DNA from: a virus | Lineage: Duplodnaviria; Caudoviricetes | Direction: 5' to 3' (one strand) | Virus record (IMG/VR): IMGVR_UViG_3300020473_000042 | Span: 1 to 52,330 of that record | DNA: 52,330 bases | Part shown: in pieces, positions 1,723 through 51,129 of the stretch | Layout: every line of letters begins with the position of its first letter | Position numbering within the stretch: the stretch's first letter is position 1 | Translations under genes and position numbers: made by a program | The notes under the pieces: model-generated | Databases searched by the model: none | What the model saw: only the letters and a program-made list of their open reading frames with translations | What the model was told of the DNA's origin: nothing

Positions 1723-2355
1723 ATGTATGAAGTTTTTAACACAGAATTTAGACATTGTTTTGCAATGCCTAATTCTAATACTATGACTATTAAACCAATA
1801 AAAGAGTTTACAGAAAATTGGATTAATTTTGTTACTTGTAAGAATAATCTTCCTTTAGGAAAAGCAGTAATTGTAGATCCTTTTGCTAAAGATTGTAAGT
1901 TAGGAACAATAACTAATGATCTTAATACAGAATGTGATACTGACTATCATATGAGAGCAGAAGATTTTTTAGATAAACTTATAGATGAAGGCATAGAAGC
2001 AGATGTTGTTATCTATGATCCACCTTACAGTCCTAGACAAATATCAGAATGTTACAAAGCTGTAGGTATCCAAACAACACAACAAGATACTCAAGCATCT
2101 TTTTATACTAAGATAAAACAAAGAATAAGAGAGATAGTAAAAGTAGATGGTTACGTTCTATCCTTTGGTTGGAACAGTATGGGTGTTGGAAAGGAAGGTT
2201 TTAGATACGAAGAGATAATGTTAGTAACTCATGGTGGAGCGCACAACGATACAATATGCGTAGCACAAAGAAGGATTCCACAATTATTATCAGATATGGA
2301 TTCAGATGATAAGCTGTTGGAAGATGAGGAATGTCAACTTACACTCTCGATATAG
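1723..2355 (+). CDS. Putative N6-adenine/N4-cytosine DNA methyltransferase-like protein
   Basis: VIVDPFA (motif I-like) and VIYDPPY catalytic motif; AAGGA RBS. Confidence 0.7.
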   Translation: MYEVFNTEFRHCFAMPNSNTMTIKPIKEFTENWINFVTCKNNLPLGKAVIVDPFAKDCKLGTITNDLNTECDTDYHMRAEDFLDKLIDEGIEADVVIYDPPYSPRQISECYKAVGIQTTQQDTQASFYTKIKQRIREIVKVDGYVLSFGWNSMGVGKEGFRYEEIMLVTHGGAHNDTICVAQRRIPQLLSDMDSDDKLLEDEECQLTLSI

Positions 2356-4058
2356 AAACGGACTCTCTTAATCCATCAGTAATATGGTGCGTTGTTATAC
2401 GCAAGCTGAACACTGGTCAAGTTAAAGTCATAACAAGCAAAGAGGATATGCACCAGTTTAATGAAGATGACGTTATAGTAACGCACAATGGCGTGGATTA
2501 CGATATTCCTATTCTTAACAAGTTATGGGGTACTGACATTAAGATTGACCAAGTATGTGATACGCTAATAATGTCAAGGCTCTTTAATCCTAACAGAGAG
2601 AATGGTCATTCATTGGGAGCGTGGGGAAGACGGCTGGCGTTTGACAAAATAGAGTTTGACAATTTTGGTGGGTTGTCTGACAAAATGATTGAGTACTGCC
2701 AAAGAGACGTTGAGCTAACAGAAAAAGTTTATCTGCATCTGCTTCAAGAAGGTCATATGTTTTCTGACAAGTCCATACGCCTAGAACATAACATTGCACA
2801 CATCATTCACCTACAGAGTAAGCATGGTTTTTATCTTGACGCAATCAAAGCTGACAAATTGTATAAAGAGACTTATGAGAAAGCAAAGCAGATAGAGCAA
2901 GAACTACAGCAAGAGTTTCAGCCAGTGCCTAAGTTTCTGCGTGAGGTAACACCAAGAATAAAGAAGGACGGCACGTTGTCTCTCGTAGGACTGAAGGACA
3001 TTGAGGATGCTGACAATACTGTAGCTGGAACATTCTCTCTTTTTAAGTTTGAACCTTTTAACCTAGCAAGCCCAAAACAGATTATTGCAAGACTAGATCG
3101 TTGTGGTTGGAATCCAACAGTGTTTACACCGAAGGGTTCTCCCAAGATATGCGAACAGAACTTGGAGACAATATCTGACAATGCACCAGCATCAGCAAAG
3201 AAGCTGGCAGAGTGGAAGATGCTAGAGTCCAGATGGAAGACAGTAGAGAGTTGGCTAGAGGCTTGTGGTGCTGACAATCGTGTTCATGGCAAGGTGCTGA
3301 CAATGGGTGCTGTGACAGGCAGAATGACGCACACAGAGCCAAACATGGCTAACGTTGTGTCCTCTGACAAGCCCTACGGCAAGGAATGCAGAGAATGTTT
3401 TACGGTTGAAGATGCTGACAATTATAGTATTGTAGGCATGGATGCTAAAGGTCTTGAGCTAAGAATGTTAGCACATTACATGAATGACGAGGATTACATT
3501 AACATTGTGTTGCATGGTGATCCTCACACTGCTAACCAGCAAGCGGCTGGACTAGAAACAAGAGCGCAGAGCAAGACTTTCATCTATGCGTTTCTTTATG
3601 GTGCTGGTGCAGAGAAACTAGGTAGTGTCGTAGGAGGCACTGCAAGAGATGGTTCTAGGTTGAGAAGCGAGTTTCTTCACAATATGCCATCTCTTAATAG
3701 GCTTGTAACAAGAGTAAGAGGTGTAGCTTCTAAGGGTAGCGTCAAAGGTCTTGATGGCAGACGTATTATGATACGCCATGAACACGCTGCTTTAAACACT
3801 CTGTTGCAAGGAGCAGGAGCAATAGCTTGTAAACAATGGAGTATTTGTATGCACGAATACATACAACGTAACAAGCTAGATGCTCGTCTTGTCAATACGA
3901 TACATGATGAGTTACAGTACGAAGTCCATAACGATGATGTGGAAGCCATGTTGATAGGTGCTGACAAAACTATGCAGGAGGCTGGTAAGCTTCTTGGTGT
4001 AAGACTGACATTAAATGCAGATGCAAAGGTAGGTAAAACATGGGCAGATACGCATTAG
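2331..4058 (+). CDS. polA: DNA polymerase family A with 3'-5' exonuclease (T7-like, Tyr762 type)
   Basis: ExoI DIETD, HNGVDYD, YCQRDV; TGRMTH; motif A DAKGLELR; motif B RAQSKTFIYAFLYGAG; motif C IHDELQ. Confidence 0.97.
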   Translation: MSTYTLDIETDSLNPSVIWCVVIRKLNTGQVKVITSKEDMHQFNEDDVIVTHNGVDYDIPILNKLWGTDIKIDQVCDTLIMSRLFNPNRENGHSLGAWGRRLAFDKIEFDNFGGLSDKMIEYCQRDVELTEKVYLHLLQEGHMFSDKSIRLEHNIAHIIHLQSKHGFYLDAIKADKLYKETYEKAKQIEQELQQEFQPVPKFLREVTPRIKKDGTLSLVGLKDIEDADNTVAGTFSLFKFEPFNLASPKQIIARLDRCGWNPTVFTPKGSPKICEQNLETISDNAPASAKKLAEWKMLESRWKTVESWLEACGADNRVHGKVLTMGAVTGRMTHTEPNMANVVSSDKPYGKECRECFTVEDADNYSIVGMDAKGLELRMLAHYMNDEDYINIVLHGDPHTANQQAAGLETRAQSKTFIYAFLYGAGAEKLGSVVGGTARDGSRLRSEFLHNMPSLNRLVTRVRGVASKGSVKGLDGRRIMIRHEHAALNTLLQGAGAIACKQWSICMHEYIQRNKLDARLVNTIHDELQYEVHNDDVEAMLIGADKTMQEAGKLLGVRLTLNADAKVGKTWADTH

Positions 4059-4564
4059 AATTACAACGTGGTAAGCAAGCAGAAATATGTTTCAAGAACA
4101 TTGCTGAAAACAGAGGGTATGATGTTACCTTCTCTTCCAGACAAGTTGACATGAAAGATCATATAGATTTGTTTCTAAAAAAGAATGACAAGACATTTGG
4201 TATTGATGTAAAAGCGAGAAGAAAAGTATCCAGACACAGTGATCATTATGATGATGAGCATACATGGATAGAGTTTAAGAATGTTCGTGGCAATCAAGGA
4301 TGGTTGTATGGCAAAGCTGACAAGATTGCTTTTGAAAGACAGTTTGATTTTCTTATTGTTGACAGAGAGGAGCTATCTAAATATTGCGAGACTAAAGTCT
4401 CTACTGTGTTTGTAGATAAAGCGTCAGATGCTTTGTATAAGTGCTATCAACGAGCAGGTAGGAAAGATGTAATCAGTCGAGTAAATATGGACGATATTCT
4501 TTATTCAAATATTTTTACAAAAAATCCAAAAATATGGAAAAAAGAAGTTGACATTAAAAAATAG
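4040..4564 (+). CDS. PD-(D/E)XK restriction-endonuclease-like protein
   Basis: HIDLFL...GIDVKARRK catalytic pattern; WIEFKNVRGNQGWLYGKAD. Confidence 0.7.
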   Translation: MGRYALELQRGKQAEICFKNIAENRGYDVTFSSRQVDMKDHIDLFLKKNDKTFGIDVKARRKVSRHSDHYDDEHTWIEFKNVRGNQGWLYGKADKIAFERQFDFLIVDREELSKYCETKVSTVFVDKASDALYKCYQRAGRKDVISRVNMDDILYSNIFTKNPKIWKKEVDIKK

Positions 4565-4575
4565 GGATGTATACT
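4548..4575 (+). promoter_or_regulatory. sigma70-type promoter for SSB and downstream replication genes
   Basis: A-rich upstream, TTGACA 4548-4553, 16 bp, TATACT 4570-4575; AAGGAG RBS before 4616. Confidence 0.65.
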
Positions 4576-4615
4576 AGGTTTATTGTGTAACTCTTGACAT
4601 AGAAGGAGTATTATT

Positions 4616-5047
4616 ATGATTGTAAGAGGAACAGCAGAATGGGCTTCAGTTTTTGAGCCTAACGATCTTAGCGGTAAGTATCAGGTTGACATTTGTAAAC
4701 TTGATTCAAAGACTGTTAAGGAACTGGAAGCAGTAGGCATCAACGTCAGAAAAGGCGAAGGTGAGAAGTCTGACAAAGGTTCATACATTACAGCTAAAGC
4801 TGGTAAGTATCCACCTAAAGTATGGGATCGTAAGAAGAACCCAATGGACGGATCGCAGTTGATCGGCAATGGTTCGGAGATCAAAGCGTCTATTCGTCCA
4901 TACGAGTGGAACTTCAAGGGTAAGGCTGGAGTGAGTGCAGGTCTAAACAGCCTCATGGTTCTTTCATTAGTTGCCTATGGTGGGGACGATGAGCTTGAAG
5001 CAGAGGATTTAGATGCTGATGATGGGGAGGACAACGAAGACTTCTAA
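4616..5047 (+). CDS. Single-stranded DNA-binding protein (T7 gp2.5-like)
   Basis: WASVFEPN...IGNGS...GVSAGLNSL; acidic C-terminal tail ending in F. Confidence 0.85.
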   Translation: MIVRGTAEWASVFEPNDLSGKYQVDICKLDSKTVKELEAVGINVRKGEGEKSDKGSYITAKAGKYPPKVWDRKKNPMDGSQLIGNGSEIKASIRPYEWNFKGKAGVSAGLNSLMVLSLVAYGGDDELEAEDLDADDGEDNEDF

Positions 5048-5156
5048 GTAGGTAGAGTCACGTTCAAATGGTAGGTAGGGATAGCTCTTAGGGGGTTATC
5101 GGTATCAGAGCGAGGGGTTGGGGCTACTGGTAATAACATAAGAACGAAAGAACAGC

Positions 5157-5999
5157 ATGGCAAAAGTACATACAGTAATTAACGACATCCATACAATGTT
5201 AGAAGAAGGTAAAGAGGGCGTTAACGAAAAGCACCTTCAAGAGTTCTTTCGAGCTTTGCGTGATGACATTGAAATATTTTTAGCTCCTGATAATAAAGAT
5301 AACAACGGAAGACTAAGGATGTCCTCCATAGGAAAAAGTACAAGGAAGTTATGGTACGAGTTTAGAGACAAACAACCTTCTAAGCTAGATGGTCAGACCA
5401 GACTAAAGTTTTTCTTTGGAAACCTTGTCGAGTCGTTTCTGTTGTTTCTTGTACAGGAAGCAGGGCATAAGGTTACAGACAGGCAGAAGGAAGTTGTAAT
5501 AGAAGGTGTCAAGGGACACATAGATGGTAAAATAGACGGTGTTGTAGTTGACGTAAAATCAGCTTCCGACTTTGGATTTAAAAAATTCAAATACAATAAC
5601 CTACACACTGATGATCCCTTTGGATACATAGGTCAGTTAAGTGGCTACATTCAAGCAGAGGGAGATGATGTAGGTTATTTCTTAGCTTACAATAAGAACA
5701 ATGCTGAGATGGCTCTGGTAGAGATTGATGAGCTAACGATGTTGGACGCAGAGCAACGCATCAAAGAGTTAAAGAAAGTTATGAAACAAGAGGAGGTTCC
5801 AGAAAAATGCTATTCAGATGTAGAGGAGGGCAAGCAAGGAAATAGAATACTTGACAGGAACTGTAACTTCTGCGATTATAAGTATGAGTGCTGGCAGGAT
5901 GCAAACAAAGGTAAAGGTTTAAGAGTTTTCCAATATGCCAGTGGTTTAATGTATTTCACGCACATAGAGAAGGAGCCTAGAGTAGAAGAGGTTTTGTAA
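5157..5999 (+). CDS. PD-(D/E)XK / Cas4-like exonuclease
   Basis: LRMSSIGK..RKLWY; GHIDGKIDGVVVDVKSAS; YIGQLSGY; C-terminal CNFCDYKYEC. Confidence 0.85.
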   Translation: MAKVHTVINDIHTMLEEGKEGVNEKHLQEFFRALRDDIEIFLAPDNKDNNGRLRMSSIGKSTRKLWYEFRDKQPSKLDGQTRLKFFFGNLVESFLLFLVQEAGHKVTDRQKEVVIEGVKGHIDGKIDGVVVDVKSASDFGFKKFKYNNLHTDDPFGYIGQLSGYIQAEGDDVGYFLAYNKNNAEMALVEIDELTMLDAEQRIKELKKVMKQEEVPEKCYSDVEEGKQGNRILDRNCNFCDYKYECWQDANKGKGLRVFQYASGLMYFTHIEKEPRVEEVL

Positions 6000-6241
6000 T
6001 GCAAGCTCGAAAGGAAAAAGATAAAGTATGGTATATCAAGTGGGCATCATCTGTAACGTTGATGCTTGGCATGGTACTCACAGCACAAAACGTATTTCCT
6101 TACAATCTGTATCTTCACGTTCTTGGCACAATAGGCTGGATGTATGTTTCTATTGTGTGGAATGATCGTGCGCTCATTGTAATAAACAGTGTCGCATTGT
6201 CCATATTTTTTAACGGAATAATATCAACAATGGTGAAGTAA
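5999..6241 (+). CDS. Small multi-pass membrane protein
   Basis: Three hydrophobic segments; WYIKW...WNDRALIVIN; translationally coupled to neighbours. Confidence 0.75.
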   Translation: MQARKEKDKVWYIKWASSVTLMLGMVLTAQNVFPYNLYLHVLGTIGWMYVSIVWNDRALIVINSVALSIFFNGIISTMVK

Positions 6242-7863
6242 TGGCTTATAAAAAGACACATCAACCATGTCCAGATTGCGGTAGCAGTGACGCTCTAACT
6301 ATTAACGAGGATGACAGCACCTTTTGTTTTTCTTGCGAAAGCTACAAAAATGCACCAGATGAATTAGTAGAGGAAGATATGAAACATAACGACATAAGTC
6401 CTAAATACCTGTCTTCTGGGAAGACTCTTGCTCTTCCAGACAGAGGAATAACAAGAGATACCTGTCAAGCTTACGGTGTTACAATAGAAGGAACACAACA
6501 ATACTACCCATACTACAACGAGGACGGTGAGTGGATAGCCAACAAGGTAAGGGGTAAGTCCTTTGACGGACACAAAACTTTCCAGACTATTGGAAACTGG
6601 AAAGACGCTACACTGTTTGGTCAGAATAAATTCTCTGCTGGCGGTAAGTATGTAACGTTGTGCGAGGGAGAACTTGACGCTTTAGCTGCTTATCAGATGA
6701 TGGGTTCCAAGTGGCCTTCTCTGTCTATTCGTAATGGTGCAGCGAGTGTCGTTAAAGACATAGAGAAATCTTTTGAGTACCTTATGAAATATGACAACAT
6801 AGTAATATGTTTTGATAATGATAAGGCTGGAAGGAAAGCAGCTAAGAAGGCTGCTGAGTTGTTGTCTCCTAAAGGTAAGATTGTGCATCTGGAAAAGAAG
6901 GATGCTAACGAGTATCTTATTGATGGTAAGATAAAGGAGTTTATGGACGCTTGGTGGAATGCTGACAGCTACACGCCAGACGGCATCGTTGCTGGTACTG
7001 AACTGTGGGACGTTCTACAGGAGGGGCCAGCTAAGACAGCAGTAGACTACCCTTATGACGGCATGAACTTAATGACCTATGGTATCCGTATGGGTGAGTT
7101 AATAACAGTGTGTGCTGGAACTGGCATAGGTAAGAGCAGTTTCTTAAAGGAGATCATAAAGCATATCTTTGACAACACAGAAGACAACATAGGCATGATG
7201 TTCATGGAGGAGAACGTGCGAAGCACAGCAGAGTCCATGATGGGTCTTCAGTTAGGTAAGCAGTTACATCTTCCTACCACTGAGTATACTGAGCAGGAGT
7301 ACAGAAGAGCGTATGATGAGACTGTTGGTTCTGGAAGATACTTCTTCTTTGACCATTTCGGATCAAATACTATAGATAACATACTAGCACGAATAAGGTA
7401 CTTTGTCAAGGCTGTAAAGTGCAGGTACATCATATTAGATCATATCAGTATACTTGTTAGTTCACAACAACACGCTTATGATGAGCGTAGAACAATAGAT
7501 GAGTGCATGACTAAGATAAGAACGCTGATACAGGAGCTTAACGTTTCACTGATACTGGTATCTCATTTGCGTAGACCGATGCAGGGTTCGCATGAAGAAG
7601 GGCTGAATACTTCGTTGTCCGACTTACGTGGATCTGCTAGCATAGGACAACTAAGTGACATTGTTGTTGGCTTGGAACGTAACGGTCAACACGATGATCC
7701 TGTAGAGCGACATACAACTTACGTTAGAATAATAAAAAATAGATTTTCAGGCTTGACAGGTTTGTGTGCGAAGCTATACTATGATTTTACAGATGGTCGT
7801 ATAAGAGAGAAGAGTTTAGACTTTGATGATAAAGATGACCATGATGACGGAGATCTTGATTAA
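6241..7863 (+). CDS. DNA primase-helicase (T7 gp4-like)
   Basis: Zn finger CPDC...CFSC; TOPRIM EGELD and FDNDKAG; Walker A AGTGIGKS; ILDHIS, SHLRRP, DLRGS, KNRFSG. Confidence 0.97.
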   Translation: MAYKKTHQPCPDCGSSDALTINEDDSTFCFSCESYKNAPDELVEEDMKHNDISPKYLSSGKTLALPDRGITRDTCQAYGVTIEGTQQYYPYYNEDGEWIANKVRGKSFDGHKTFQTIGNWKDATLFGQNKFSAGGKYVTLCEGELDALAAYQMMGSKWPSLSIRNGAASVVKDIEKSFEYLMKYDNIVICFDNDKAGRKAAKKAAELLSPKGKIVHLEKKDANEYLIDGKIKEFMDAWWNADSYTPDGIVAGTELWDVLQEGPAKTAVDYPYDGMNLMTYGIRMGELITVCAGTGIGKSSFLKEIIKHIFDNTEDNIGMMFMEENVRSTAESMMGLQLGKQLHLPTTEYTEQEYRRAYDETVGSGRYFFFDHFGSNTIDNILARIRYFVKAVKCRYIILDHISILVSSQQHAYDERRTIDECMTKIRTLIQELNVSLILVSHLRRPMQGSHEEGLNTSLSDLRGSASIGQLSDIVVGLERNGQHDDPVERHTTYVRIIKNRFSGLTGLCAKLYYDFTDGRIREKSLDFDDKDDHDDGDLD

Positions 7864-7865
7864 TA

Positions 7866-8087
7866 ATGAAAACAAGGATACACGTTAATCAGCACGTGCT
7901 AAAAAAAAATAGCAAAACGGGTCAGAGAAATTCTGTTTTCACCGTAAAGACATACAAAAGCAATGAATATTCTAACAAAGTTAGTATTCTCGGCCCAAGC
8001 AAAGTTGTTTATTCACCAGATAAACCTTTAAGTTGCGGTGCTAAAGCTTGGATAGAGACAAACTCTGAAGTAATTTTAGGAGAATAA
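7866..8087 (+). CDS. Small hypothetical phage protein
   Basis: RIHVNQH...YSPDKPLSCGAKAWIET; tightly packed in the operon. Confidence 0.75.
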   Translation: MKTRIHVNQHVLKKNSKTGQRNSVFTVKTYKSNEYSNKVSILGPSKVVYSPDKPLSCGAKAWIETNSEVILGE

Positions 8088-8088
8088 T

Positions 8089-8508
8089 GTGCCATTAGTG
8101 TCTATGTATAAAGTAACAAACAATGATCTAATAGACAACAAAGATTGTATCTTTATTTATCTGGATCATAAGCGCAGAATAGGTGATCCACCTGTCAACG
8201 CAGATTTCCGACACGCTGAGAATGCCTACCCTATAATTGTCAAGAAGTACAGTGGCACTAAGCCAGAGTCCTTTTTTAGCGATGCAGAATTGGGTGTGTT
8301 TCAAGGAGAGTTCGATCCAACCTTTTCCAAGATAGTGTCCATACTGAGGTCTGGCGGTACTGGAATATTATGTAGAGAGTCAATAGAACACGATGACTTT
8401 TCTCCTATCCTTATTCGTGAACACTCAAGGAAAGTACACGACTATATGCACGATGCTATGATTAAATTTTATAGCCAATACAAACCAAGACTGATCAGGA
8501 AAAGATGA
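8089..8508 (+). CDS. Hypothetical protein
   Basis: 139-aa ORF filling the operon gap; AGGAG RBS. Confidence 0.7.
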   Translation: MPLVSMYKVTNNDLIDNKDCIFIYLDHKRRIGDPPVNADFRHAENAYPIIVKKYSGTKPESFFSDAELGVFQGEFDPTFSKIVSILRSGGTGILCRESIEHDDFSPILIREHSRKVHDYMHDAMIKFYSQYKPRLIRKR

Positions 8509-8882
8509 CAACGAGATACAGATCAAGATTTGAATTTGACTTTGCTACTTACCTAGACAACAACAATATAAGGTTTGAGTATGAGCCTAGAAAAATAAAG
8601 TACGTTCCTAAAGAAAAGTCGTACACTCCAGATTTTTATCTCGTAGATTATGATATGTTTATAGAGACTAAAGGAAGATTTATAGAAGCAGACCGCACCA
8701 AACACAAACTCATAGCAAAACAGCATCCAGATATAGACATAAGGTTTATGTTCCAAAACCCTAGAGAGAAGTTGTATAAAAAGTCTAAAGCAACTTATGC
8801 TGATTGGTGTGAGAAAAACGATTTTCTTTATTGTACTAAAGAATTACCATATACGTGGGTGAAAAAAAATGAGCATAAGTAA
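8505..8882 (+). CDS. Endonuclease I / Holliday junction resolvase (T7 gp3-like)
   Basis: YRSRFE...YEP...YTPDF...IETKGRF...DRTKH...HPDIDIRFMF...TYADWC. Confidence 0.93.
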   Translation: MTTRYRSRFEFDFATYLDNNNIRFEYEPRKIKYVPKEKSYTPDFYLVDYDMFIETKGRFIEADRTKHKLIAKQHPDIDIRFMFQNPREKLYKKSKATYADWCEKNDFLYCTKELPYTWVKKNEHK

Positions 8883-9276
8883 AGACATAGCAGGTAAAGA
8901 ACTTCAAAAACTCATAGACAGAGAGAAGAAGGATCTGAAGCAAGGTCGAGTGTATCTCATACTGGAGCAGGGAGAAGACAAAAATGAGTTCTCCATGCTG
9001 TGTTTAGACACAGTAGGTAACAAAGGCGAGGAACCTACTGCTTCTCAGATTATTGCTGCTGGTGTCGTCAACATTGTAGAGAACAGTGCCGAAGCAATAT
9101 TTGAGCTAGGTGAAGAAATTATGTTGGAGAAAAAATATACAGGAAGTAACATAATTTCTCTTGACTCCTACAGAGATAAAGGGCATAATAATATTATTTT
9201 CAGACCAGAAAAAAATGATAAAATGACTGTAACGCTTACATTTGATGATAAGGATGGAGATGACGATGGCAGATGA
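8869..9276 (+). CDS. Hypothetical protein
   Basis: 135-aa ORF overlapping neighbours within the operon. Confidence 0.7.
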   Translation: MSISKDIAGKELQKLIDREKKDLKQGRVYLILEQGEDKNEFSMLCLDTVGNKGEEPTASQIIAAGVVNIVENSAEAIFELGEEIMLEKKYTGSNIISLDSYRDKGHNNIIFRPEKNDKMTVTLTFDDKDGDDDGR

Positions 9277-9592
9277 AGAACCAAAGAAACCAGAAAAGAC
9301 GGAGGAATACAAAGATATAATGGACGCTCTTACTGAGCCAAAGCCTGAACCAAAGCCTGAGCCTGATCCTGTAAACAGCCCAGAACATTATAATAAGCTT
9401 GACGTTGAGGCTATTGATTTGATAGAAATGTCTATGACTAAGGATGAGTTTCTTGGTTACTTGAAAGGTAACGTTCTTAAATATATTATTCGTTATAAAC
9501 ATAAAGGCAAGGATCTAGAAGATCTCGACAAAGGAAAGTGGTACTTACAAAGACTGAGGGACAGAATAAAAGATGCAAAATCTACCAACTGA
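9266..9592 (+). CDS. DUF3310 protein (T7 gp1.7-like putative nucleotide kinase)
   Basis: DPVNSPEHY...EAIDLI...GYLKGNVLKYIIRYKHKG...EDLDKGKWYL; likely ATG at 9266 after GGAGA. Confidence 0.85.
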   Translation: MADEEPKKPEKTEEYKDIMDALTEPKPEPKPEPDPVNSPEHYNKLDVEAIDLIEMSMTKDEFLGYLKGNVLKYIIRYKHKGKDLEDLDKGKWYLQRLRDRIKDAKSTN

Positions 9593-11486
9593 TTATCAAA
9601 CATTTATACATAAGAGCAGGTACGCACGTTGGCTTGAAGAAGAACAGCGCAGAGAGACTTGGGACGAAACAGTAACACGCTTTATTGACTACATGGTTGA
9701 TCATATTAAGCTTGTGTGTGAAATAGACATATCCAAGTCTGACGATATAAAAGCTGTCAAGCAAGCCATACTGGATCTGGAGATTATGCCTTCAATGCGA
9801 TCTCTTATGACAGCAGGGCCAGCACTGAAACGTGAGAACGTTGCAGGATACAACTGTTCTTACATTCCAATAGACAACCCTAGATCTTTTGATGAAGTGT
9901 TATACATTCTTATGAACGGCACTGGTGTAGGCTTCTCTGTGGAGAGAAAATATATAGAGAATCTCCCTACCATCCCAGACGTAGAGTTTGAGAAAACAGA
10001 AGACGTTATTAGTGTAGCGGATTCTAAGGAGGGGTGGGCTAGAAGCTTTAGAGATCTTATAGGGTATCTGTACACAAACAGAATACCAAAGGTTGATATG
10101 TCTAAAATACGTCCTGCTGGTGCTAGGCTAAAGACGTTTGGTGGCAGGGCTTCTGGACCAGAACCACTCAAGGACTTGTTTGATTTTACTATAAGGATGT
10201 TTGAAGATGCAAAAGGAAGAAAGCTATCCTCGATTGAATGCCATGATATTGTTTGTAAAACAGGTGAAGTTGTTGTTGTCGGCGGTGTGCGTAGGTCTGC
10301 TTTGCTTTCTCTTAGTAACCTTACTGATGATAGGATGCGGTCTGCTAAGTCTGGTAATTGGTGGTCTCTTAATCCCCATAGAGCTTTGGCGAATAACTCT
10401 GTTGCTTACACGCAAACTCCTGACCCTTCTGCGTTTATGAGGGAATGGCTGTCACTATATGAGAGCAAATCTGGAGAGCGTGGCATATTTAACAGGACTG
10501 CTGCCAAGAATAAAGCTGCCAGTAATGGTAGGAGGAAAGAAGCTGATTTCGGCACTAACCCTTGCAGTGAAATAATACTGCGTCCTAATCAGTTCTGTAA
10601 TCTGTCTGAAGTTGTATGTAGGCCAAAGGATACTCAAAAGACATTACGTAAGAAAGCAGAGCTAGCTTCCATACTAGGAACGTTACAATCTACGCTTACA
10701 GACTTTAAATATTTACGTACAAGATGGAAAAGCAATACAGAAGAAGAACGTTTACTAGGTGTTTCTTTAACAGGAATACTTGATTGTAGGCATCTTAGTG
10801 AGGTGCTGAACCCAAGAGAACTGCAAGACTTGAAGAACACTGTAGTACAAACTAACATGAAGTGGGCAGGTAAGTTAGGCATACCTCAGTCTACTGCCAC
10901 CACTTGTGTCAAGCCATCTGGTACTGTTAGTCAGTTAACTAACGCTGCCAGTGGTATTCATGCTCGTCATGCTCCGTTCTATGTCAGGACGGTGCGTGGG
11001 GATGTTAAAGATCCGTTAACTCAATTTCTAATGGACAGTAACATTCCAAATGAACCTGACTTTAACAGTCCTAGCAATACGGTGGTTTTTTCCTTTCCTT
11101 TCAAATCACCTAATGCTGCAATATGTAGGACTGATATGAAGGCTCTGGAGCAACTGCACCTTTGGAAGCACTTTAGCGAACACTGGTGCGAACATAAACC
11201 TTCTATAACGGTAAGTGTGAAAGAGCATGAATGGATGGAAGTTGGAAACTGGTGCTACGAAAACTTTGATGAACTGAGTGGCATCAGTTTCCTTCCGTTC
11301 TCTGACCACAGTTATAGACAAGCTCCTTATCAAGATTCTAATCAGATAGAATATAAGAAGCTAATGGCAGAAATGCCTAAGTCAATAGATTGGGAGAAGT
11401 TTAATGATTACGAAAAAGAGGATAACACAAAAGCCTCACAAGAATTAGCTTGTACTGCAGGAGTGTGTGAAGTTGTCGATATATGA
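9573..11486 (+). CDS. nrdJ: Class II (adenosylcobalamin-dependent) ribonucleotide reductase, monomeric RTPR type
   Basis: PSMRSL, YNCS, GGVRRSA, TNPCSE, FCNLSE, TCVKPSGT, C-terminal CTAGVC; no nrdB small subunit in the window. Confidence 0.92.
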   Translation: MQNLPTDYQTFIHKSRYARWLEEEQRRETWDETVTRFIDYMVDHIKLVCEIDISKSDDIKAVKQAILDLEIMPSMRSLMTAGPALKRENVAGYNCSYIPIDNPRSFDEVLYILMNGTGVGFSVERKYIENLPTIPDVEFEKTEDVISVADSKEGWARSFRDLIGYLYTNRIPKVDMSKIRPAGARLKTFGGRASGPEPLKDLFDFTIRMFEDAKGRKLSSIECHDIVCKTGEVVVVGGVRRSALLSLSNLTDDRMRSAKSGNWWSLNPHRALANNSVAYTQTPDPSAFMREWLSLYESKSGERGIFNRTAAKNKAASNGRRKEADFGTNPCSEIILRPNQFCNLSEVVCRPKDTQKTLRKKAELASILGTLQSTLTDFKYLRTRWKSNTEEERLLGVSLTGILDCRHLSEVLNPRELQDLKNTVVQTNMKWAGKLGIPQSTATTCVKPSGTVSQLTNAASGIHARHAPFYVRTVRGDVKDPLTQFLMDSNIPNEPDFNSPSNTVVFSFPFKSPNAAICRTDMKALEQLHLWKHFSEHWCEHKPSITVSVKEHEWMEVGNWCYENFDELSGISFLPFSDHSYRQAPYQDSNQIEYKKLMAEMPKSIDWEKFNDYEKEDNTKASQELACTAGVCEVVDI

Positions 11487-35310: not shown

Positions 35311-35946
35311 TTATTTACCCCATTCTTTCTTGAGGTAATTTTGTACGAGTACAGATTTCACGAATGCGCCGTTGGTAATATCTTGTGATAAATGCTGATT
35401 TACCTCGTATAAATTCTTTAGCATGAAAGACTGTTCGTAAGAAACATTTGAGGAAAACCATCCAAGCACGTTTGTTCTCAAACCTTTTGTTACTTCCTGC
35501 ACCCCATGCGGATAGATAATTGGAAATATAGCAGCTTCACCAGCTTTTAACTTTCGTCCTATAGTTCCTACTTCAGTACTAAAGTATATCTCTCCTCCTT
35601 CATATTCATCGCTTAGATTTATTGAAAAGCCATAATCAAAATGTACGTTGTTAGATTTTGGATAGGCTTTAAAATTATCTACATGGAGGTTATAGTAGTT
35701 TCCTTTTTTATACTGATTGTAATAATTAACAGAAACTCTAGTTGGGCAATACACACAATCTATATAATGAGCGTCATATATTTTGTTAATTATTAGTTTA
35801 CGTACTTCTTCTGGTACGCCTACAGATTCTTTATTATTTTTTACGTCTTCTAATGGCTGTGACTTGTTGCCATCTTTAAAAGTATCTTTACCAATACCGT
35901 CTAAACAGGATTTAATTTCGTCTTCATTGAGTAATTTAATAAACAT
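35311..35946 (-). CDS. PKHD-type (PiuC/YbiX-like) Fe(II)/2OG hydroxylase
   Basis: YNLHVDN (HxD); SINLSDEYEGGE; AIFP..YPHGVQEVTKGLR..VLGWFSS; start at 35946 after AAAGGGGA. Confidence 0.85.
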   Translation of the reverse strand: MFIKLLNEDEIKSCLDGIGKDTFKDGNKSQPLEDVKNNKESVGVPEEVRKLIINKIYDAHYIDCVYCPTRVSVNYYNQYKKGNYYNLHVDNFKAYPKSNNVHFDYGFSINLSDEYEGGEIYFSTEVGTIGRKLKAGEAAIFPIIYPHGVQEVTKGLRTNVLGWFSSNVSYEQSFMLKNLYEVNQHLSQDITNGAFVKSVLVQNYLKKEWGK

Positions 35947-35990: not shown

Positions 35991-36015
35991 TGTGGGATTT
36001 TTGCAGAACCCCACA
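35991..36015 (-). terminator. Stem-loop after the capsid/decoration genes (probable leaky terminator)
   Basis: UGUGGGGUU...AAUCCCACA stem followed by CCUUUCUUGCUUU on the minus strand. Confidence 0.55.
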
Positions 36016-44626: not shown

Positions 44627-46990
44627 TTATCTTGTTGTTGGAAATTCTTCAGAAGATTCACCTGTTCTTTCAAAGTAATCTTCGTATTCTTTTATAAAAC
44701 CTGTTCTTTTAGGTTGAAATTTGTCTTCTGTAAGCCCCATAGACACAGCTTCTCTTTCAGCAGTGTCTTGTCTTTTTAAAAAACCTTTCATTTCATCTGC
44801 ATATCGACTTGAAGCTTCTTTTTCTAAAAGCATTAATTCATCTTCTCTTGTTCTTGGTCTGGTAGTGTATTCTTCTTCTGTTGGAAATTCTTCTGCAGTT
44901 GGATCTGCTTTCGCCATGTTTGGGAAATATACTCCTCTGGGTACAGCATATTCAGTGTCTTCTTCAAATTTATCTGGTATTCCTCTTTCTGCTTCCATTC
45001 TTTGTTGCATAGCGTCAAACAGTTCAGGATCTTCTAAATCTTCAATAGGTCTTTCTCCTGCAGGTCCAGCTTCAGCAGCTTGAAAAGCTAACTCAATACC
45101 TGCTTCTCCTAACATTGCTTGAGGGGCAACTGCTGCTAGGGCCAAACCGCCTATTATTCTTTTACCAGCTTTAGATTTTAAAGCTTCTAGAGCCTCTTCA
45201 GATCCATCTTTTGCCAGATCTATTAATTTTCGTAATTTTTTATCAGCATCTTTATTTTTTGCATCTGCTTCGTTTAATATAGCTTGTTTTAGTTCGTCTT
45301 TATCTCCAGTTGCTCTTGCTTCATTTATTTGTCGTGTATTGTCAGCAGGAGGAGTATCTGATTCTATGTCCTCTCCTACAATAGACTGTCCTTTTCTCAG
45401 CCTATCTTTAATTCCTCCTCTGCCTCCCCCTGTCCTTGCACTGGATATAGCACCTCTTCTGACTAACTCATCAAACATGCCTTGAAATTTAGTAGCTAAA
45501 TCAGTTAACTGTCCCTTAAAATTAGCCATTCCCTCTTGAACAGTAGATGCTAAGTTGACAGCCATCCTACTAAAAGCATCGTAGTTAGGCATCTCTGTAA
45601 CGTCAGGTATCTTTCCTTCTGGGTGCGTAAGTCTGTTAGGATGATTTTCGTATCCAGGTTTTATTCCATCTTGTGAAAAAGTGTCTTCCTCAAAACCCAT
45701 ATTTGGAATAAGGCTTAGTGCATCTTGAGTTACTCTGCTTAATGAAGCTAATATTCTTCCAGAAGATAATCCTCTGCTGTCTATTGCTTCTGATACTTCT
45801 CCTACATAGTCTTCTTCGTTAATTCCAAATGCGCTTAAAAAAGCTCTTGGACTGATAAAGTCCGAATACCCTACTAATCTACTTTCTAAAGTTCTTAATG
45901 CTTGTTTTCCAAACTCTATTCTTTCACCAGAATTGATATACTTAGTTGCTTCATCTGTTCTTGCTCTTCCAGTTACCATCTTTCTTTCAATTAAAGTAAA
46001 ATCTCCTACCATAGACTCCATGTTGTTTCTTAAATATTTCATTAAAAAACCAGTTTCTTTAGGTTTAGTTCCTGCTAAATCTTTTTCAACTGTAATTCTG
46101 TGTTCATTTCCTAAATTTCTAGCTATGTCGTCTGCTATGTTATCAGTTATATTTGAACCATACGTACCATGACCTTTTGGAAAAAGTTTTCCATCTTTTT
46201 TTCTTTTAGTGTTAGGAGACTTTTCTCTTTCTTTAATAATCTGATTTAGAATTTCTCTTGAAACGTCACCAAAAATAACTGTAGTTTTGTACCCACCTTT
46301 TGTTTCAGGAATAGATAAAGTACCATTATTTAAGTCTATATCCTCTAAAGCTATTCTTCCCATTTCTTCAAGACGAAGACCTGTTGTATACTTTAATAAA
46401 CCAAACAATTTAGACATTCTGTCTACTTTAGTGTTTTCACTTAAAGATTTTATAAAAGCTTTTTGAAAGTTAGGAGGTAGATTTACAATATCTCTAGATC
46501 TTTTTTCTTGAAGATGAAAATAACTTTCTTTCAACTTACCTAAAGTATTTTGAAGTTTTTGTATTCCGTCTAAACCTGCATAATTACTTATTGACTTAAT
46601 ATAAGAAGCCATATCAGCTTTAGAGTAATTACTAAGACCTTGCTTTTCTAATAGTCCATCAGGCTTAAACAGTGCTTTTATAACACCTGCACTGTTTAGC
46701 TCTTTTAATGTTAAGTCTGAAGCTTGTACCAGCTTACCATCCCCAAGATCTATAGTAGTTTCTCTCAGTTTTGTAAGAACGCCCTTTAAAGCACTTGCTG
46801 CACCTCTTGAATAAGCACCACTTCGATTAGCAGTAGGATAAATCTCATTTCCATCTGCATCAAAAAGATCCTTGACCCCTCTTTCTTTCATACTCTGAAG
46901 AATAGCTTGCTCAAAGTTGCTATCAGGAGATATAGCTGCTTCTTGTGAAATATCTATTTCTGTAAGTAATTCTGTTACTTCGTCTGCCAT
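44627..46990 (-). CDS. 787-aa protein with a tyrosine-recombinase (integrase-family) catalytic domain and a long acidic C-terminal region
   Basis: TTGLR206LEEM..I..EDIDL..GTLSIPETKGG..LFP..K318YLR321..TGR342..TKY351; TAATG-coupled to TerL. Confidence 0.75.
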   Translation of the reverse strand: MADEVTELLTEIDISQEAAISPDSNFEQAILQSMKERGVKDLFDADGNEIYPTANRSGAYSRGAASALKGVLTKLRETTIDLGDGKLVQASDLTLKELNSAGVIKALFKPDGLLEKQGLSNYSKADMASYIKSISNYAGLDGIQKLQNTLGKLKESYFHLQEKRSRDIVNLPPNFQKAFIKSLSENTKVDRMSKLFGLLKYTTGLRLEEMGRIALEDIDLNNGTLSIPETKGGYKTTVIFGDVSREILNQIIKEREKSPNTKRKKDGKLFPKGHGTYGSNITDNIADDIARNLGNEHRITVEKDLAGTKPKETGFLMKYLRNNMESMVGDFTLIERKMVTGRARTDEATKYINSGERIEFGKQALRTLESRLVGYSDFISPRAFLSAFGINEEDYVGEVSEAIDSRGLSSGRILASLSRVTQDALSLIPNMGFEEDTFSQDGIKPGYENHPNRLTHPEGKIPDVTEMPNYDAFSRMAVNLASTVQEGMANFKGQLTDLATKFQGMFDELVRRGAISSARTGGGRGGIKDRLRKGQSIVGEDIESDTPPADNTRQINEARATGDKDELKQAILNEADAKNKDADKKLRKLIDLAKDGSEEALEALKSKAGKRIIGGLALAAVAPQAMLGEAGIELAFQAAEAGPAGERPIEDLEDPELFDAMQQRMEAERGIPDKFEEDTEYAVPRGVYFPNMAKADPTAEEFPTEEEYTTRPRTREDELMLLEKEASSRYADEMKGFLKRQDTAEREAVSMGLTEDKFQPKRTGFIKEYEDYFERTGESSEEFPTTR

Positions 46991-48816: not shown

Positions 48817-49119
48817 CTATGAATCCACAAACTTTGCCTTACGAACACCACCGCCATATGCGTATTTCTTGACGTAACCACCGCCAGCTTTGCTAATTTG
48901 TAGCTGCTGCCTACGTGCTTCATCTAGAATTTTTTGTAATGAATCTGCACTCATTTCATTTACACTTCTAGGTACAGGAATATTTAATTGGTTCATCCTA
49001 GAGACTATATCTGCTTTTCTTGCTGTCTCGTGATTATATATTCCTTTTCCTTGTGACATTCTTTCCAGTATTTCTGCTTCAGTATCTGGATCTATAACTT
49101 CACTAGCTTTGTCTGCCAT
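48817..49119 (-). CDS. Hypothetical protein with C-terminal GG motifs
   Basis: 100 aa ending KAGGGYVKKYAYGGGVRKAK; coupled to TerS. Confidence 0.75.
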   Translation of the reverse strand: MADKASEVIDPDTEAEILERMSQGKGIYNHETARKADIVSRMNQLNIPVPRSVNEMSADSLQKILDEARRQQLQISKAGGGYVKKYAYGGGVRKAKFVDS

Positions 49120-49538
49120 TACTCTGTCTCCTGATCTATAACGATCTCTTTTGGTTTATCTTTGGAGGGTAACATTACAATGCCATGCATTATCTGTCCC
49201 TCTACTTCTACTTGCTGTTTCTTTCCAAGACCAACCCTGTCAAGAACAGACTCTGCTGTTTTGATACGCATATCCATCTGGTTCAATGGCGTTGTACCGT
49301 CAGCATCTAAACCTTCTAATATTCTGTTAGCAGCCTTAACAGAGTTTGTTGCAAGCATACTTCTAGTGCGATCTATAATCTCGTCACGTAAAGAACGTGT
49401 TAACCAAGATCTAGATTGTTCTTTGTATCCTGCAGCAACAACGGCTTTCTTGACATGTCCCCCATTCGAGATGAGTTCTTCAAGAAAGCGTTCTTGTTTT
49501 TCTGTTAATTTTCGTTTCTGTGTGGCTGGCAAGCTCAT
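49119..49538 (-). CDS. terS: Terminase small subunit
   Basis: LTEKQERFL..AVVAAGY HTH; AESVLDRVGL; GIVMLPSK; upstream of TerL. Confidence 0.85.
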   Translation of the reverse strand: MSLPATQKRKLTEKQERFLEELISNGGHVKKAVVAAGYKEQSRSWLTRSLRDEIIDRTRSMLATNSVKAANRILEGLDADGTTPLNQMDMRIKTAESVLDRVGLGKKQQVEVEGQIMHGIVMLPSKDKPKEIVIDQETE

Positions 49539-49632
49539 TCTTTAGTTTCTTTATTTTTTCATTTACTACTATTTGGTATTTTAATCTTGGAAAATGTATA
49601 TGTTCTGTCAGTTTGTTTAACACTTGCTCCAT
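49480..49632 (-). CDS. Possible 50-aa leader ORF overlapping the terS start
   Basis: GGGAG RBS then MEQVLNKLTEHIHFPRLKY...; terS itself lacks an obvious RBS. Confidence 0.3.
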   Translation of the reverse strand: MEQVLNKLTEHIHFPRLKYQIVVNEKIKKLKNELASHTETKINRKTRTLS

Positions 49633-49689
49633 TTTCTCCCACAAACAGAAGCGTACCCTCCCTGTTCGCTGTATATTGTACTCACTTTG

Positions 49690-49913
49690 TTAAAGTTAAG
49701 TTTGCGTAGGCAATGCGCTCGTTCCCTCTAGCGTGTAACGGAGTTACGTCTTACGAACTGCGTACTCTAACGTTTAATGATAAAAAGGAAGTCCCTGCGT
49801 CTGTTGCCTACGCAAAACACTCTAAAACCATGAAGTGTGGATTATAAGTTCGTCCTTCAATATAATAATATTGTACTTGGTTGAATCTGAACTATAATTT
49901 TATCCACTGTTAA
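49690..49913 (-). ncRNA. Candidate structured RNA / long leader upstream of terS
   Basis: Perfect 13-bp inverted repeat 49701-49713/49804-49816 with extension and internal stems; second stem domain 49837-49907; starts just after a consensus promoter. Confidence 0.55.
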
Positions 49914-49919
49914 TATTAC

Positions 49920-49995
49920 ATTATAGTGCTGTAGAACGTTTTGTCAAGTAAAAAATTAAAATAATGCTTGACAGATTGCTCAGAAGTATTATAAT
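49920..49995. promoter_or_regulatory. Back-to-back consensus sigma70 promoters
   Basis: Minus: TTGACA 49947-49942, 16 bp, TATAAT 49925-49920. Plus: TTGACA 49968-49973, 16 bp, TATAAT 49990-49995. A/T tract between them. Confidence 0.8.
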
Positions 49996-50336
49996 GGTGT
50001 ATAACACCTACGGGCGGTATAGTATGTATATGTACTATATTGTTTATTGTCAAGAAATAGCCCATTATAACCTAAAAAACCCAAAAAAAATAAAAAATAT
50101 GGCAGCAGTGTATATAGAGTTATACCTACCCCCTAGTGGCCCATGCGTGGGGTTGCTCTTTTGTTCCGCACATCTTCTCGCAGAGGAATTGTATTGGTCT
50201 AAATAGTTGTGTAAGGGTTAAATATACGCCCTTGTGATAAAGTTCTCTCGTCACACGTACACACACGTGTTGAATACTATCTGACAATTTTATTTGCTGT
50301 GTTGAGCGCAGGGTGGCGTGTCCATTTAGACAAAGA

Positions 50337-50373
50337 AATAACCCAGACTATCCAGTGGACAGAATGGGTTATT
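50337..50373 (-). terminator. Intrinsic terminator-like hairpin
   Basis: AATAACCCA...TGGGTTATT with an inner stem; followed by UCUUU on the minus strand. Confidence 0.55.
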
Positions 50374-50389
50374 GTGTTATCAGCCTAGT

Positions 50390-50479
50390 TTATGCGAATT
50401 GAGTTAGGACTGTGAAAGATTCGTTAGTTATAACTGCGATAGTGTAGATTGTTATAATAGCTATTATTGCTTTAAGCAT
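50390..50479 (-). CDS. Small hydrophobic peptide (29 aa), not in ORF track
   Basis: MLKAIIAIITIYTIAVITNESFTVLTQFA; GAGG RBS; followed by a terminator-like hairpin. Confidence 0.45.
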   Translation of the reverse strand: MLKAIIAIITIYTIAVITNESFTVLTQFA

Positions 50480-50946: not shown

Positions 50947-51129
50947 TTATATCTCCTCTACAAATACTTTATCTTGGCAAGACTGGCACAAGCCCGAAAT
51001 ACCATATTCACGATGCGATAACTCATCCTTGAAAAAGACTGCATCCTTTTTACATGAGACACAGCGATCAATTGGTAAGTTATGCTTATCAGCAATCACT
51101 TGCATTAGTTCTAATAAATCAGTCGCCAT
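50947..51129 (-). CDS. Small Zn-binding early protein
   Basis: CVSC...FKDELSHREYGISGLCQSCQDKVF; GAGG RBS. Confidence 0.75.
   Translation of the reverse strand: MATDLLELMQVIADKHNLPIDRCVSCKKDAVFFKDELSHREYGISGLCQSCQDKVFVEEI

Follow-up and report, generated by a model that had tools for sequence, protein, structure and literature searches.

Evidence for a conserved, promoter-coupled leader RNA ahead of the terminase genes of uncultured marine phages

Introduction

What purpose might a long, strongly folded RNA serve between a perfect host-type promoter and the first packaging gene of a phage? Relatives of the HMO-2011-type phages are among the commonest viruses of seawater and, to our knowledge, it is not known how they order the expression of their genes without a polymerase of their own. 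The DNA studied here is an IMG/VR record of 52,330 bases with an estimated completeness of 94%; it was analysed as a whole and is called the window below. Its large terminase is about 50% identical to terminases of Pelagibacter, Roseobacter and Puniceispirillum phages of the HMO-2011 type. A preliminary description of the window had pointed out a structured RNA upstream of the gene for the small terminase subunit (terS), and this locus is followed up here.

Results

Genome context

The plus-strand genes at 1723–11486 encode a DNA methyltransferase, a family A DNA polymerase, a gp2.5-like single-strand binding protein, a Cas4-domain exonuclease, a primase/helicase, an endonuclease and a ribonucleotide reductase. 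A run of minus-strand genes extends over about 37.7 kb (49538 to 11841) from terS, the first recognisable packaging gene 3' of the leader, through terL, a 787-aa protein, a portal/adaptor, the major head protein, two 2OG-Fe(II) oxygenases and a tail protein to a holin near its end. It is reasonable to regard this run as a late operon of packaging, structural and lysis genes, and the earlier placement of the RNA at the head of an operon of about 38 kb stands. The 787-aa protein (44627–46990, minus strand), situated between terL and the portal/adaptor, shows a weak match to integrase families (phrog_1, E 1e-8, residues 115–284). A terminator-like hairpin occurs at 36015–35991 (minus strand), in the gap that follows the major head gene and a 158-aa gene and precedes the two oxygenase genes; it may act as a partial stop or as a stabiliser within the operon. 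Terminator-like sites are not enriched in the operon over shuffled sequences (11 vs 12.5 ± 3.9 and 15 vs 11.1 ± 3.1).

No phage RNA polymerase was found among 20 early-region and 10 late-operon proteins compared with PHROGs, nor among 8 proteins around the leader compared with Pfam. A Q-like gene was likewise not recognised among the scanned proteins (Pfam around the leader, PHROGs for the early region), and ARAGORN reported neither tRNA nor tmRNA. The 1.1-kb intergenic region holding the leader had no DNA match when searched by blastn against 50,697 phage records, and HMO-2011 has no such intergenic region in front of its terminase genes.

Table 1. Features of the window at and around the leader (MFE, minimum free energy structure).
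Feature	Position	Strand	Remarks
terL	48633-46990	-	downstream of terS
terS (small terminase subunit)	49119..49538	-	Pfam Terminase_2, E 2e-4, under the curated cut-off
Small conserved ORF, 54 aa from TTG start	49480..49644	-	tblastn: 12 loci; out of frame with terS, whose start it overlaps
Second conserved block, GCGAACAGGGAG.G..CG.UUCUGU.UGUGG	49613..49670	-	blastn 79.7–81.3% identity (L013, L019, L023, L055)
Domain 2, long rod	49701..49816	-	MFE; perfect closing stem of 13 bp
Apical hairpin of domain 2	49746..49763	-	3-bp stem ACG/CGU, 12-nt loop
Linker between domains, single-stranded	49826..49836	-	contains UGGUU, complementary to AACCA of domain 1
Domain 1, irregular hairpin	49837..49907	-	MFE; helices P1, P2 and two inner helices
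Sigma-70 promoter TTGACA-N16-TATAAT	49947-49920	-	12/12 match
Divergent partner promoter	49968..49995	+	12/12 match
Hairpin and U-run of about 25 nt, putative insulating terminator	50074..50133	-	fold −14.2 kcal/mol, then AUAUUUUUUAUUUUUUUU; z only −1.68

Promoters

The 52-kb genome contains only two perfect promoters, which stand back to back (Table 1). The one directed towards terS places the predicted start near 49914/49913, 375 nt ahead of the terS ATG (49538), in agreement with the consensus promoter and the start near 49913 proposed beforehand. A further candidate within the conserved motif of domain 1 (TTCAGA-N18-TATTAT, 9/12 in the window) was considered as a second promoter or a sigma-dependent pause element and rejected; read by eye, its hexamers are not kept across the close groups. 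The distant terS group described below carries TTCACA-N17-TATAAT-like sequences.

On the same strand and about 130–190 nt upstream of the leader promoter lies a hairpin with a U-run, in a block conserved in relatives, which the consensus terminator scan had missed. It probably stops transcription coming from the small minus-strand genes upstream, and an operon so insulated would rely on its own promoter. A 60-aa, zinc-ribbon-like protein with two CxxC pairs (50947–51129, minus strand) is encoded two genes ahead of the leader promoter. Since it was found in only 2 related loci, no linkage to the leader RNA is apparent. No regulator was seen to co-occur with the promoter and leader, p95 being present in 6 and the 60-aa protein in 2 of 56 loci.

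The divergent consensus promoter was present in all 28 sequences examined, one of them with TATACT. In the window it faces away from terS, into non-coding DNA (49968–50330). The plus-strand transcript would open with a hairpin that covaries in relatives (GGTGTATAACACC, AGGAGTTACTCC, AGAGGGTATACCC) and would then cross conserved blocks, namely TTGTCAAGAAATAG, an A-rich tract and GTAGTGGCCCATGCG.GGG ... CCCGC.CA; a weak terminator-like site lies on its path at 50135–50157. The fold of 50002–50140 is unremarkable (z −0.83). This stretch could give a second non-coding RNA, or it could be a promoter with an A/T-rich origin, comparable to the primary origin of T7, in which a promoter is followed by A/T-rich origin DNA. 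Duplex prediction between leader and divergent transcript (duplexfold) was discarded, as only meaningless full-length duplexes were returned.

Structure of the leader RNA

The minus-strand RNA 49915–49680 folds with −59.6 kcal/mol as compared to −43.6 ± 4.1 kcal/mol for 200 shuffled sequences, none of which was as good (z −3.95). This bears out the highly structured RNA of about 225 nt that had been proposed for 49913–49690 of the minus strand. The fold of the plus strand is almost equally stable (−57.9 kcal/mol, z −3.24), so that the folding energy alone cannot pick the strand.

Two domains are formed, joined by a single-stranded linker. Most of the helices named in the preliminary description recur in the MFE structure, that is GUGGAU/AUCCAC (P1) and UAUAGUUC/GAAC-UAUA (P2) in domain 1 and, in domain 2, the 13-bp stem, CGC/GCG, UUCCUUUU/AGAGGGAA and UUAGAGU/ACUUUAA. 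The inner CAAUAU/AUAUUG of domain 1 does not; UUCAA/UUGAA and AGUA/UAUU are formed in its place, and L002 has a U-U mismatch within it. Read by eye, the sequences of the L007 group have nothing that corresponds to the outer UUAGAGU/ACUUUAA. Within domain 1 lies a conserved block, AGUUCAGAUUCAACC (49893–49879), which occurs once in the window and reads AGUUCAnAyUCAACC across relatives. The closing stem of domain 2 (UUUGCGUAGGCAA/UUGCCUACGCAAA, 49816–49804 with 49713–49701) is followed by CGC/GCG, UUCCUUUU/AGAGGGAA (with two G-U pairs), AACG/CGUU and GAGU/ACUC and then by the apical hairpin, the loop of which (CAGUUCGUAAGA, 49760–49749) is also the single occurrence of its motif in the window.

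The UGGUU of the linker possibly pairs with the AACCA of domain 1, with no compensatory change found. In two subgroups the domains could plausibly touch through AACC/GGUU, again with no compensatory change, and this contact was not adopted. By eye, the arms of P1 (49899–49911 and 49837–49847) are inverted near-matches to a DnaA box, agreeing at 8/9 positions with the consensus, which we take to be TTATCCACA; since L004 has no such box-like arms, the likeness is probably due to chance.

Conservation and covariation

Relatives were collected by a TerS search of viral contigs, giving 56 loci. All 27 loci of the close groups with enough upstream sequence, which are contigs of uncultured marine phages, share one layout, a perfect TTGACA-N16-TATAAT located 250–792 nt upstream of terS and followed at once by the two-domain element (L021, L022 and L025, with upstream sequences too short, are outside this count), and the RNA begins 0–17 nt past the predicted transcription start in all relatives.

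Covariation was assessed with 20 distinct domain 2 sequences over the 13-bp closing stem and the 3-bp apical stem, i.e. 16 pairs and 320 cells. Pairing was retained in 98.8% of the cells and 11 of the 16 pairs were compensatory, values not reached by any of 500 column shuffles; when, as a control, the partner was slid by 1–3 columns, pairing dropped to 25.6–46.4%. The closing stem taken by itself has 9 compensatory pairs out of 13. The outer pair of the apical stem is GC in 8, AU in 6 and UA in 6 sequences, with an almost invariant loop above it. G-U or U-G pairs occupy 22 of the 320 cells and would be A-C mismatches on the complementary strand, hence the selected molecule is the RNA of the terS strand. 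The preference for the minus strand, voiced earlier because of G-U pairs, is thereby upheld, and covariation across the regions upstream of terS, one of the checks suggested at that time, came out positive.

P1 of domain 1 differs on both sides between groups (GTGGAT/ATCCAC, GTCCTA/TAGGAC, TGGTGGA/TCCACCA, TGTAGAA/TTCTACA, TTTGTGGAA/TTCCACAAA). This comparison covers 16 of 24 unique sequences, and the top helix was not P1 in 5 of the 16 rows; as exceptions, the window, L006, L013 and L015 have an unrelated helix, and L017 and L020 an extra outer helix. Conserved at the level of sequence are the 12-nt loop, the AGUUCAnAyUCAACC block and UUUGCG/CGCAAA at the base of the closing stem. The closing stem is a perfect duplex of 13–20 bp across relatives, domain 2 ranges in length from about 95 to 177 nt, and in L024 and L026 the apical hairpin is doubled in tandem within a longer domain 2.

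A covariance model built from domain 2 of the window (R1) detected the element in 25 of 26 close-group sources and in none of 15 sources of the distant terS group. Its alignment includes reverse-strand rows, since the long stem is palindromic, and was kept out of the counts. A domain 1 model (R2, from the window and L002) reached, even with filters off, only L019 (25 bits) and L004 elsewhere, both weakly, which indicates that the fine structure of domain 1 is poorly conserved. With all relatives aligned by MAFFT, RNAalifold yields the closing stem alone, the inner parts being misaligned. In the distant terS group, a perfect promoter is followed by a shorter leader devoid of the apical part of domain 2; it comprises a hairpin with GUUCACACUUUGCC and a small hairpin, UCUUUGCGCC-ACAA-CGGGCAAAGA, and may be a reduced relative.

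Genes following the leader

The first gene behind the leader differs from locus to locus. The window and the L007 group have a small ORF in this place, L004, L005, L019, L023, L024, L026 and L055 an ORF with a CxxCxxCC motif, L006 and L015 a tiny peptide, and L011, L016–20 and L027–30 terS itself. The spacing between leader and first start codon ranges from about 25 nt to over 50 nt; about ten loci have the terS ATG only 25–30 nt past the closing stem. The promoter and leader stay constant while the first gene varies, which suggests that the leader works for the transcript or for the polymerase making it and not for terS in particular.

The small ORF, noted also in L004, L005, L019 and L055, reads ..EQVLN..IH.PRLK.. 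in the window and ..EYKFER.SRL.AEQLRRDL in other groups; in L055 its ATG shares bases with the stop codon of the gene before it (ATGA). The CxxCxxCC protein, named by eye, stands between leader and terS in the seven loci listed. In relatives, the second conserved block codes for its C-terminus (frames read by eye), whereas in the window the same block (49670–49613) is a non-coding remnant of the last 13 or so codons that runs into the start of the small ORF; its fold is unremarkable (z −0.78). The loci L037–L054 of the distant group have a gene for an IbpA-like small heat-shock protein inserted there (MPNFSLDELLGSRYFNQAIGFDPF.., named by eye).

A scan of the minus strand between 49913 and 49538 gave no intrinsic terminator. 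Among distinct relatives no consistent U-run follows the closing stem, and their sequences show no conserved sequestering of, or platform for, a ribosome-binding site behind the leader. A classical attenuator is therefore unlikely. Attenuation had been one of the roles considered at the outset; the missing U-run and the subgroup with terS some 25–30 nt behind the stem both speak against it.

RNA libraries

Five contigs from 4 runs of 4 studies of marine RNA libraries match 49406–49891, all of them downstream of the predicted start; such contigs show no ends, strand or level, and the libraries may contain DNA. Contigs of run X1 span the border between the two domains and also connect domain 2 with the terS start. 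Run X2 contributed a 154-nt contig of depth 21.2 which equals 49694–49839 without mismatch, i.e. domain 2 with short flanks; it is the sole contig of that run on the 1.1-kb stretch and ends in the A/U-rich single strands flanking domain 2. These contigs hint weakly at an expressed leader that runs on into terS and at a possible persistence of domain 2 as a fragment; as a side observation, the strong structure of domain 2 would make such a fragment long-lived. The stretch 49892–50400 had no contig in the four runs, which is no evidence for absence of the plus-strand transcript.

Database and motif searches

The Rfam 15 covariance models, among them 6S RNA, phi29 pRNA, C4 antisense RNA, riboswitches and self-cleaving ribozymes as far as the release has them, gave no match to the window at gathering scores. 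With E ≤ 10 on 49450–50150, three matches were far under threshold (28.5 vs 90.8, 18.8 vs 83 and 16.2 vs 70 bits). The suggestion of a 6S-like decoy or a packaging RNA is not sustained by these meaningless matches, and the phage has an ordinary TerS and TerL; moreover, the two separate rods lack the large central bubble with which a 6S-type decoy mimics an open promoter, and this candidate was dropped.

Exact-motif scans of viral contigs returned 34 stretches, of which 13 were true, all in contigs already found via terS. In metagenome contigs 3 were true among the 80 matches listed (at least 117 reported), and 0 of 48 from genome contigs passed model R1. These three scans thus yielded the same phage clade together with chance matches, and neither a host nor further diversity. 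The element is not described in the literature consulted on HMO-2011-type phages, phage structured RNAs and put antitermination, and an earlier catalogue may list it; one from 2023, which comprises over 10,000 candidate RNAs of phages, refers in its accessible text to some that lie upstream of terminase genes (PMC10690425).

Discussion

The data argue strongly for a real, conserved, cis-encoded leader RNA, and of this we have little doubt. The best reading is that the mRNA of the packaging, structural and lysis operon begins with it as a 5' leader, and that it represents a new family of promoter-coupled, cis-acting leader RNAs outside Rfam. For its mode of action, processive antitermination of the put or canT kind is our tentative proposal and the one that we rank first, although it is short of an even chance. 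Host sigma-70 RNA polymerase would transcribe the leader from the consensus promoter, and the RNA would fold during synthesis into two rods, the domain 1 hairpin presenting AGUUCAnAyUCAACC and the domain 2 rod presenting CAGUUCGUAAGA on its stem of 13–20 bp. Promoter and leader would travel as one cassette behind which other genes are inserted. By itself, or with a factor of host or phage origin on its conserved loops, the nascent RNA would remain on the elongating polymerase, which would thereby resist pausing and termination, including that by Rho, and could traverse the operon of about 37.7 kb. A precedent is the put RNA, which suppresses termination and pausing in cis via the zinc-binding domain of the beta' subunit.

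This ranking follows from the position at the very start of the transcript, the two-rod form, single-stranded conserved motifs able to contact polymerase or a Nus-type factor, and the length of the operon, together with the internal hairpin at 36015–35991, the upstream insulator and the lack of a phage polymerase. There are arguments against it. In size the RNA exceeds put about threefold, and no likeness of its sequence to any known antiterminator was noticed; the terminator-like sites of the operon do not exceed shuffle frequency. The apical part of domain 2 is lost in the distant group and domain 2 varies in length, which is not expected of a surface that fits a conserved polymerase. Finally, a near-invariant loop duplicated in tandem would suit a protein-binding hairpin equally well.

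The leader might indeed be regulatory through a bound protein, with the apical loop and perhaps the domain 1 motif forming an operator that sets translation, decay or timing in the manner of boxB-N or the coat-protein operators. The covarying stem below that loop, its duplication in L024 and L026 and the freedom in length of the remainder of domain 2 would all be in keeping with this, but no partner was found, upstream genes being not conserved with the RNA (p95 in 6/56 and the zinc-ribbon protein in 2/56 loci), the loop is at least 60 nt from any ribosome-binding site, and the variable first gene speaks against autoregulation by TerS; an operator is possible, though on balance rather unlikely. 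With a lower probability still, domain 2 (about 150 nt) might be excised from the leader as a stable small RNA that either has a host or phage target in trans or serves as a decoy. The P1 c4 and P4 CI RNAs are small structured RNAs processed out of the leader of the operon that they control, and the lone X2 contig with its ends in single strands beside domain 2 would fit an excised product. It is, on the other hand, one contig from one run, contigs give neither true ends nor levels, and those of run X1 span both borders of domain 2. As to a target, the loop core GTTCGTAAGA recurs on the plus strand at 35431–35443, where the minus-strand mRNA of a 2OG-Fe(II) oxygenase gene carries the complement within coding sequence. 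This 10-nt loop complement, the only one in the genome, is found in G003 and absent from the relative G001, for which reason it was judged a chance match and rejected; the window holds no further copy of the motif. We consider it just as improbable that the leader is a passive 5' module, the rods of which shield a long untranslated 5' end from 5'-end-dependent decay and Rho loading or offer an RNase III site (T7 early mRNA has RNase III processing sites) with no specific partner. Great stability 0–17 nt from the start, the perfect duplex at the base of domain 2 and the recovery of this domain as a fragment in an RNA library would be accounted for, whereas the sequence conservation of the 12-nt loop, the domain 1 block and UUUGCG/CGCAAA, and the retention of about 200 untranslated nucleotides, would be left unexplained.

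Two further explanations carry little weight. That the leader is a riboswitch or attenuator which senses a metabolite or the state of the host and halts transcription or translation is very improbable: although it is a conserved structured 5' UTR in which AACC of domain 1 might reach a GGUU of domain 2 or the linker over a long range, neither a terminator nor a conserved sequestered ribosome-binding site follows, the rods lack a conserved multi-helix junction, Rfam gave no match, and both the distance to the start codon and the gene behind it vary. A signal at the level of DNA (a pac site, a cruciform for terminase, an operator or DnaA boxes) is scarcely credible. Long inverted repeats adjoining terS, arms of P1 resembling DnaA boxes (8/9, by eye, against the presumed consensus) and a plus strand that folds almost equally well may suggest it, and yet the covarying helices contain 22 G-U cells that the opposite strand would show as A-C mismatches, helix sequences shift with pairing kept, the RNA libraries contain the stretch only downstream of the promoter, and L004 does without the box-like arms.

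Taken to its furthest, antitermination would imply a new large class of antiterminator RNA, either factor-independent or recruiting Nus factors, which is made at the start of the late transcript of abundant marine phages and carries host RNA polymerase over about 37.7 kb. With the divergent promoter driving a second conserved non-coding transcript, the two would form an RNA-based control centre in a phage without its own polymerase. We regard this extended picture as speculative and doubtful. With its defined helices and invariant loops open to mutation, the cassette offers a handle on the control of the operon. Should it modify polymerase, it would join just two other kinds of cis-acting antiterminator RNA known from mobile elements, with no predecessor in marine phages; as the binding site of a protein or the source of a stable small RNA, it would still mark a control point of late expression. 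The perfect promoter with its stabilising leader may also serve as an expression part.

Several known systems invite comparison. In lambda, the strong constitutive host-type promoter PR' with an untranslated leader of about 200 nt (6S RNA, tR') heads the late operon that includes the terminase genes. The marine leader resembles it in combining a host-type promoter with some 200 untranslated nucleotides ahead of a terminase operon. Lambda differs in closing its leader with an intrinsic terminator and in loading Q at the promoter; no terminator follows the marine leader, and no Q-like gene was recognised among the scanned proteins. P1 c4 and P4 CI are likewise small structured RNAs embedded in an operon leader; excision rests in our case on one contig, and the marine RNA has no Rfam match and no conserved target complementary to its loop.

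According to the accessible text of its source, canT of Tn916 is an element-encoded, orientation-specific and processive antiterminator, probably a cis-acting RNA, which is paired with an insulating terminator (PMC11658703). Cis-acting antiterminator RNAs thus occur in other mobile elements as well. The resemblance, set by description and not by sequence and drawn across to a Gram-positive conjugative element, lies in the insulating terminator, to which the hairpin and U-run upstream of the leader promoter would correspond.

The put RNA of HK022, as far as the accessible text of the source goes, measures about 70 nt, consists of two stem-loops and lies just behind PL, one of a divergent promoter pair; it acts over at least 10 kb, in cis and on host polymerase, with no need of a phage polymerase (PMC9378689). 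putL and putR head early operons of a temperate lambdoid phage, whereas the leader described here heads the packaging, structural and lysis operon of an uncultured relative of marine podophages, is about 200–225 nt long (up to about 340 nt in L024 and L026) and, as far as noticed, shares no likeness with put in sequence. Its predicted two-domain layout just behind a strong promoter and the divergent arrangement of promoters recall those of put. Location immediately downstream of a promoter for host polymerase, which characterises put, was found in all relatives, with the leader 0–17 nt past the predicted start of a 12/12 promoter.
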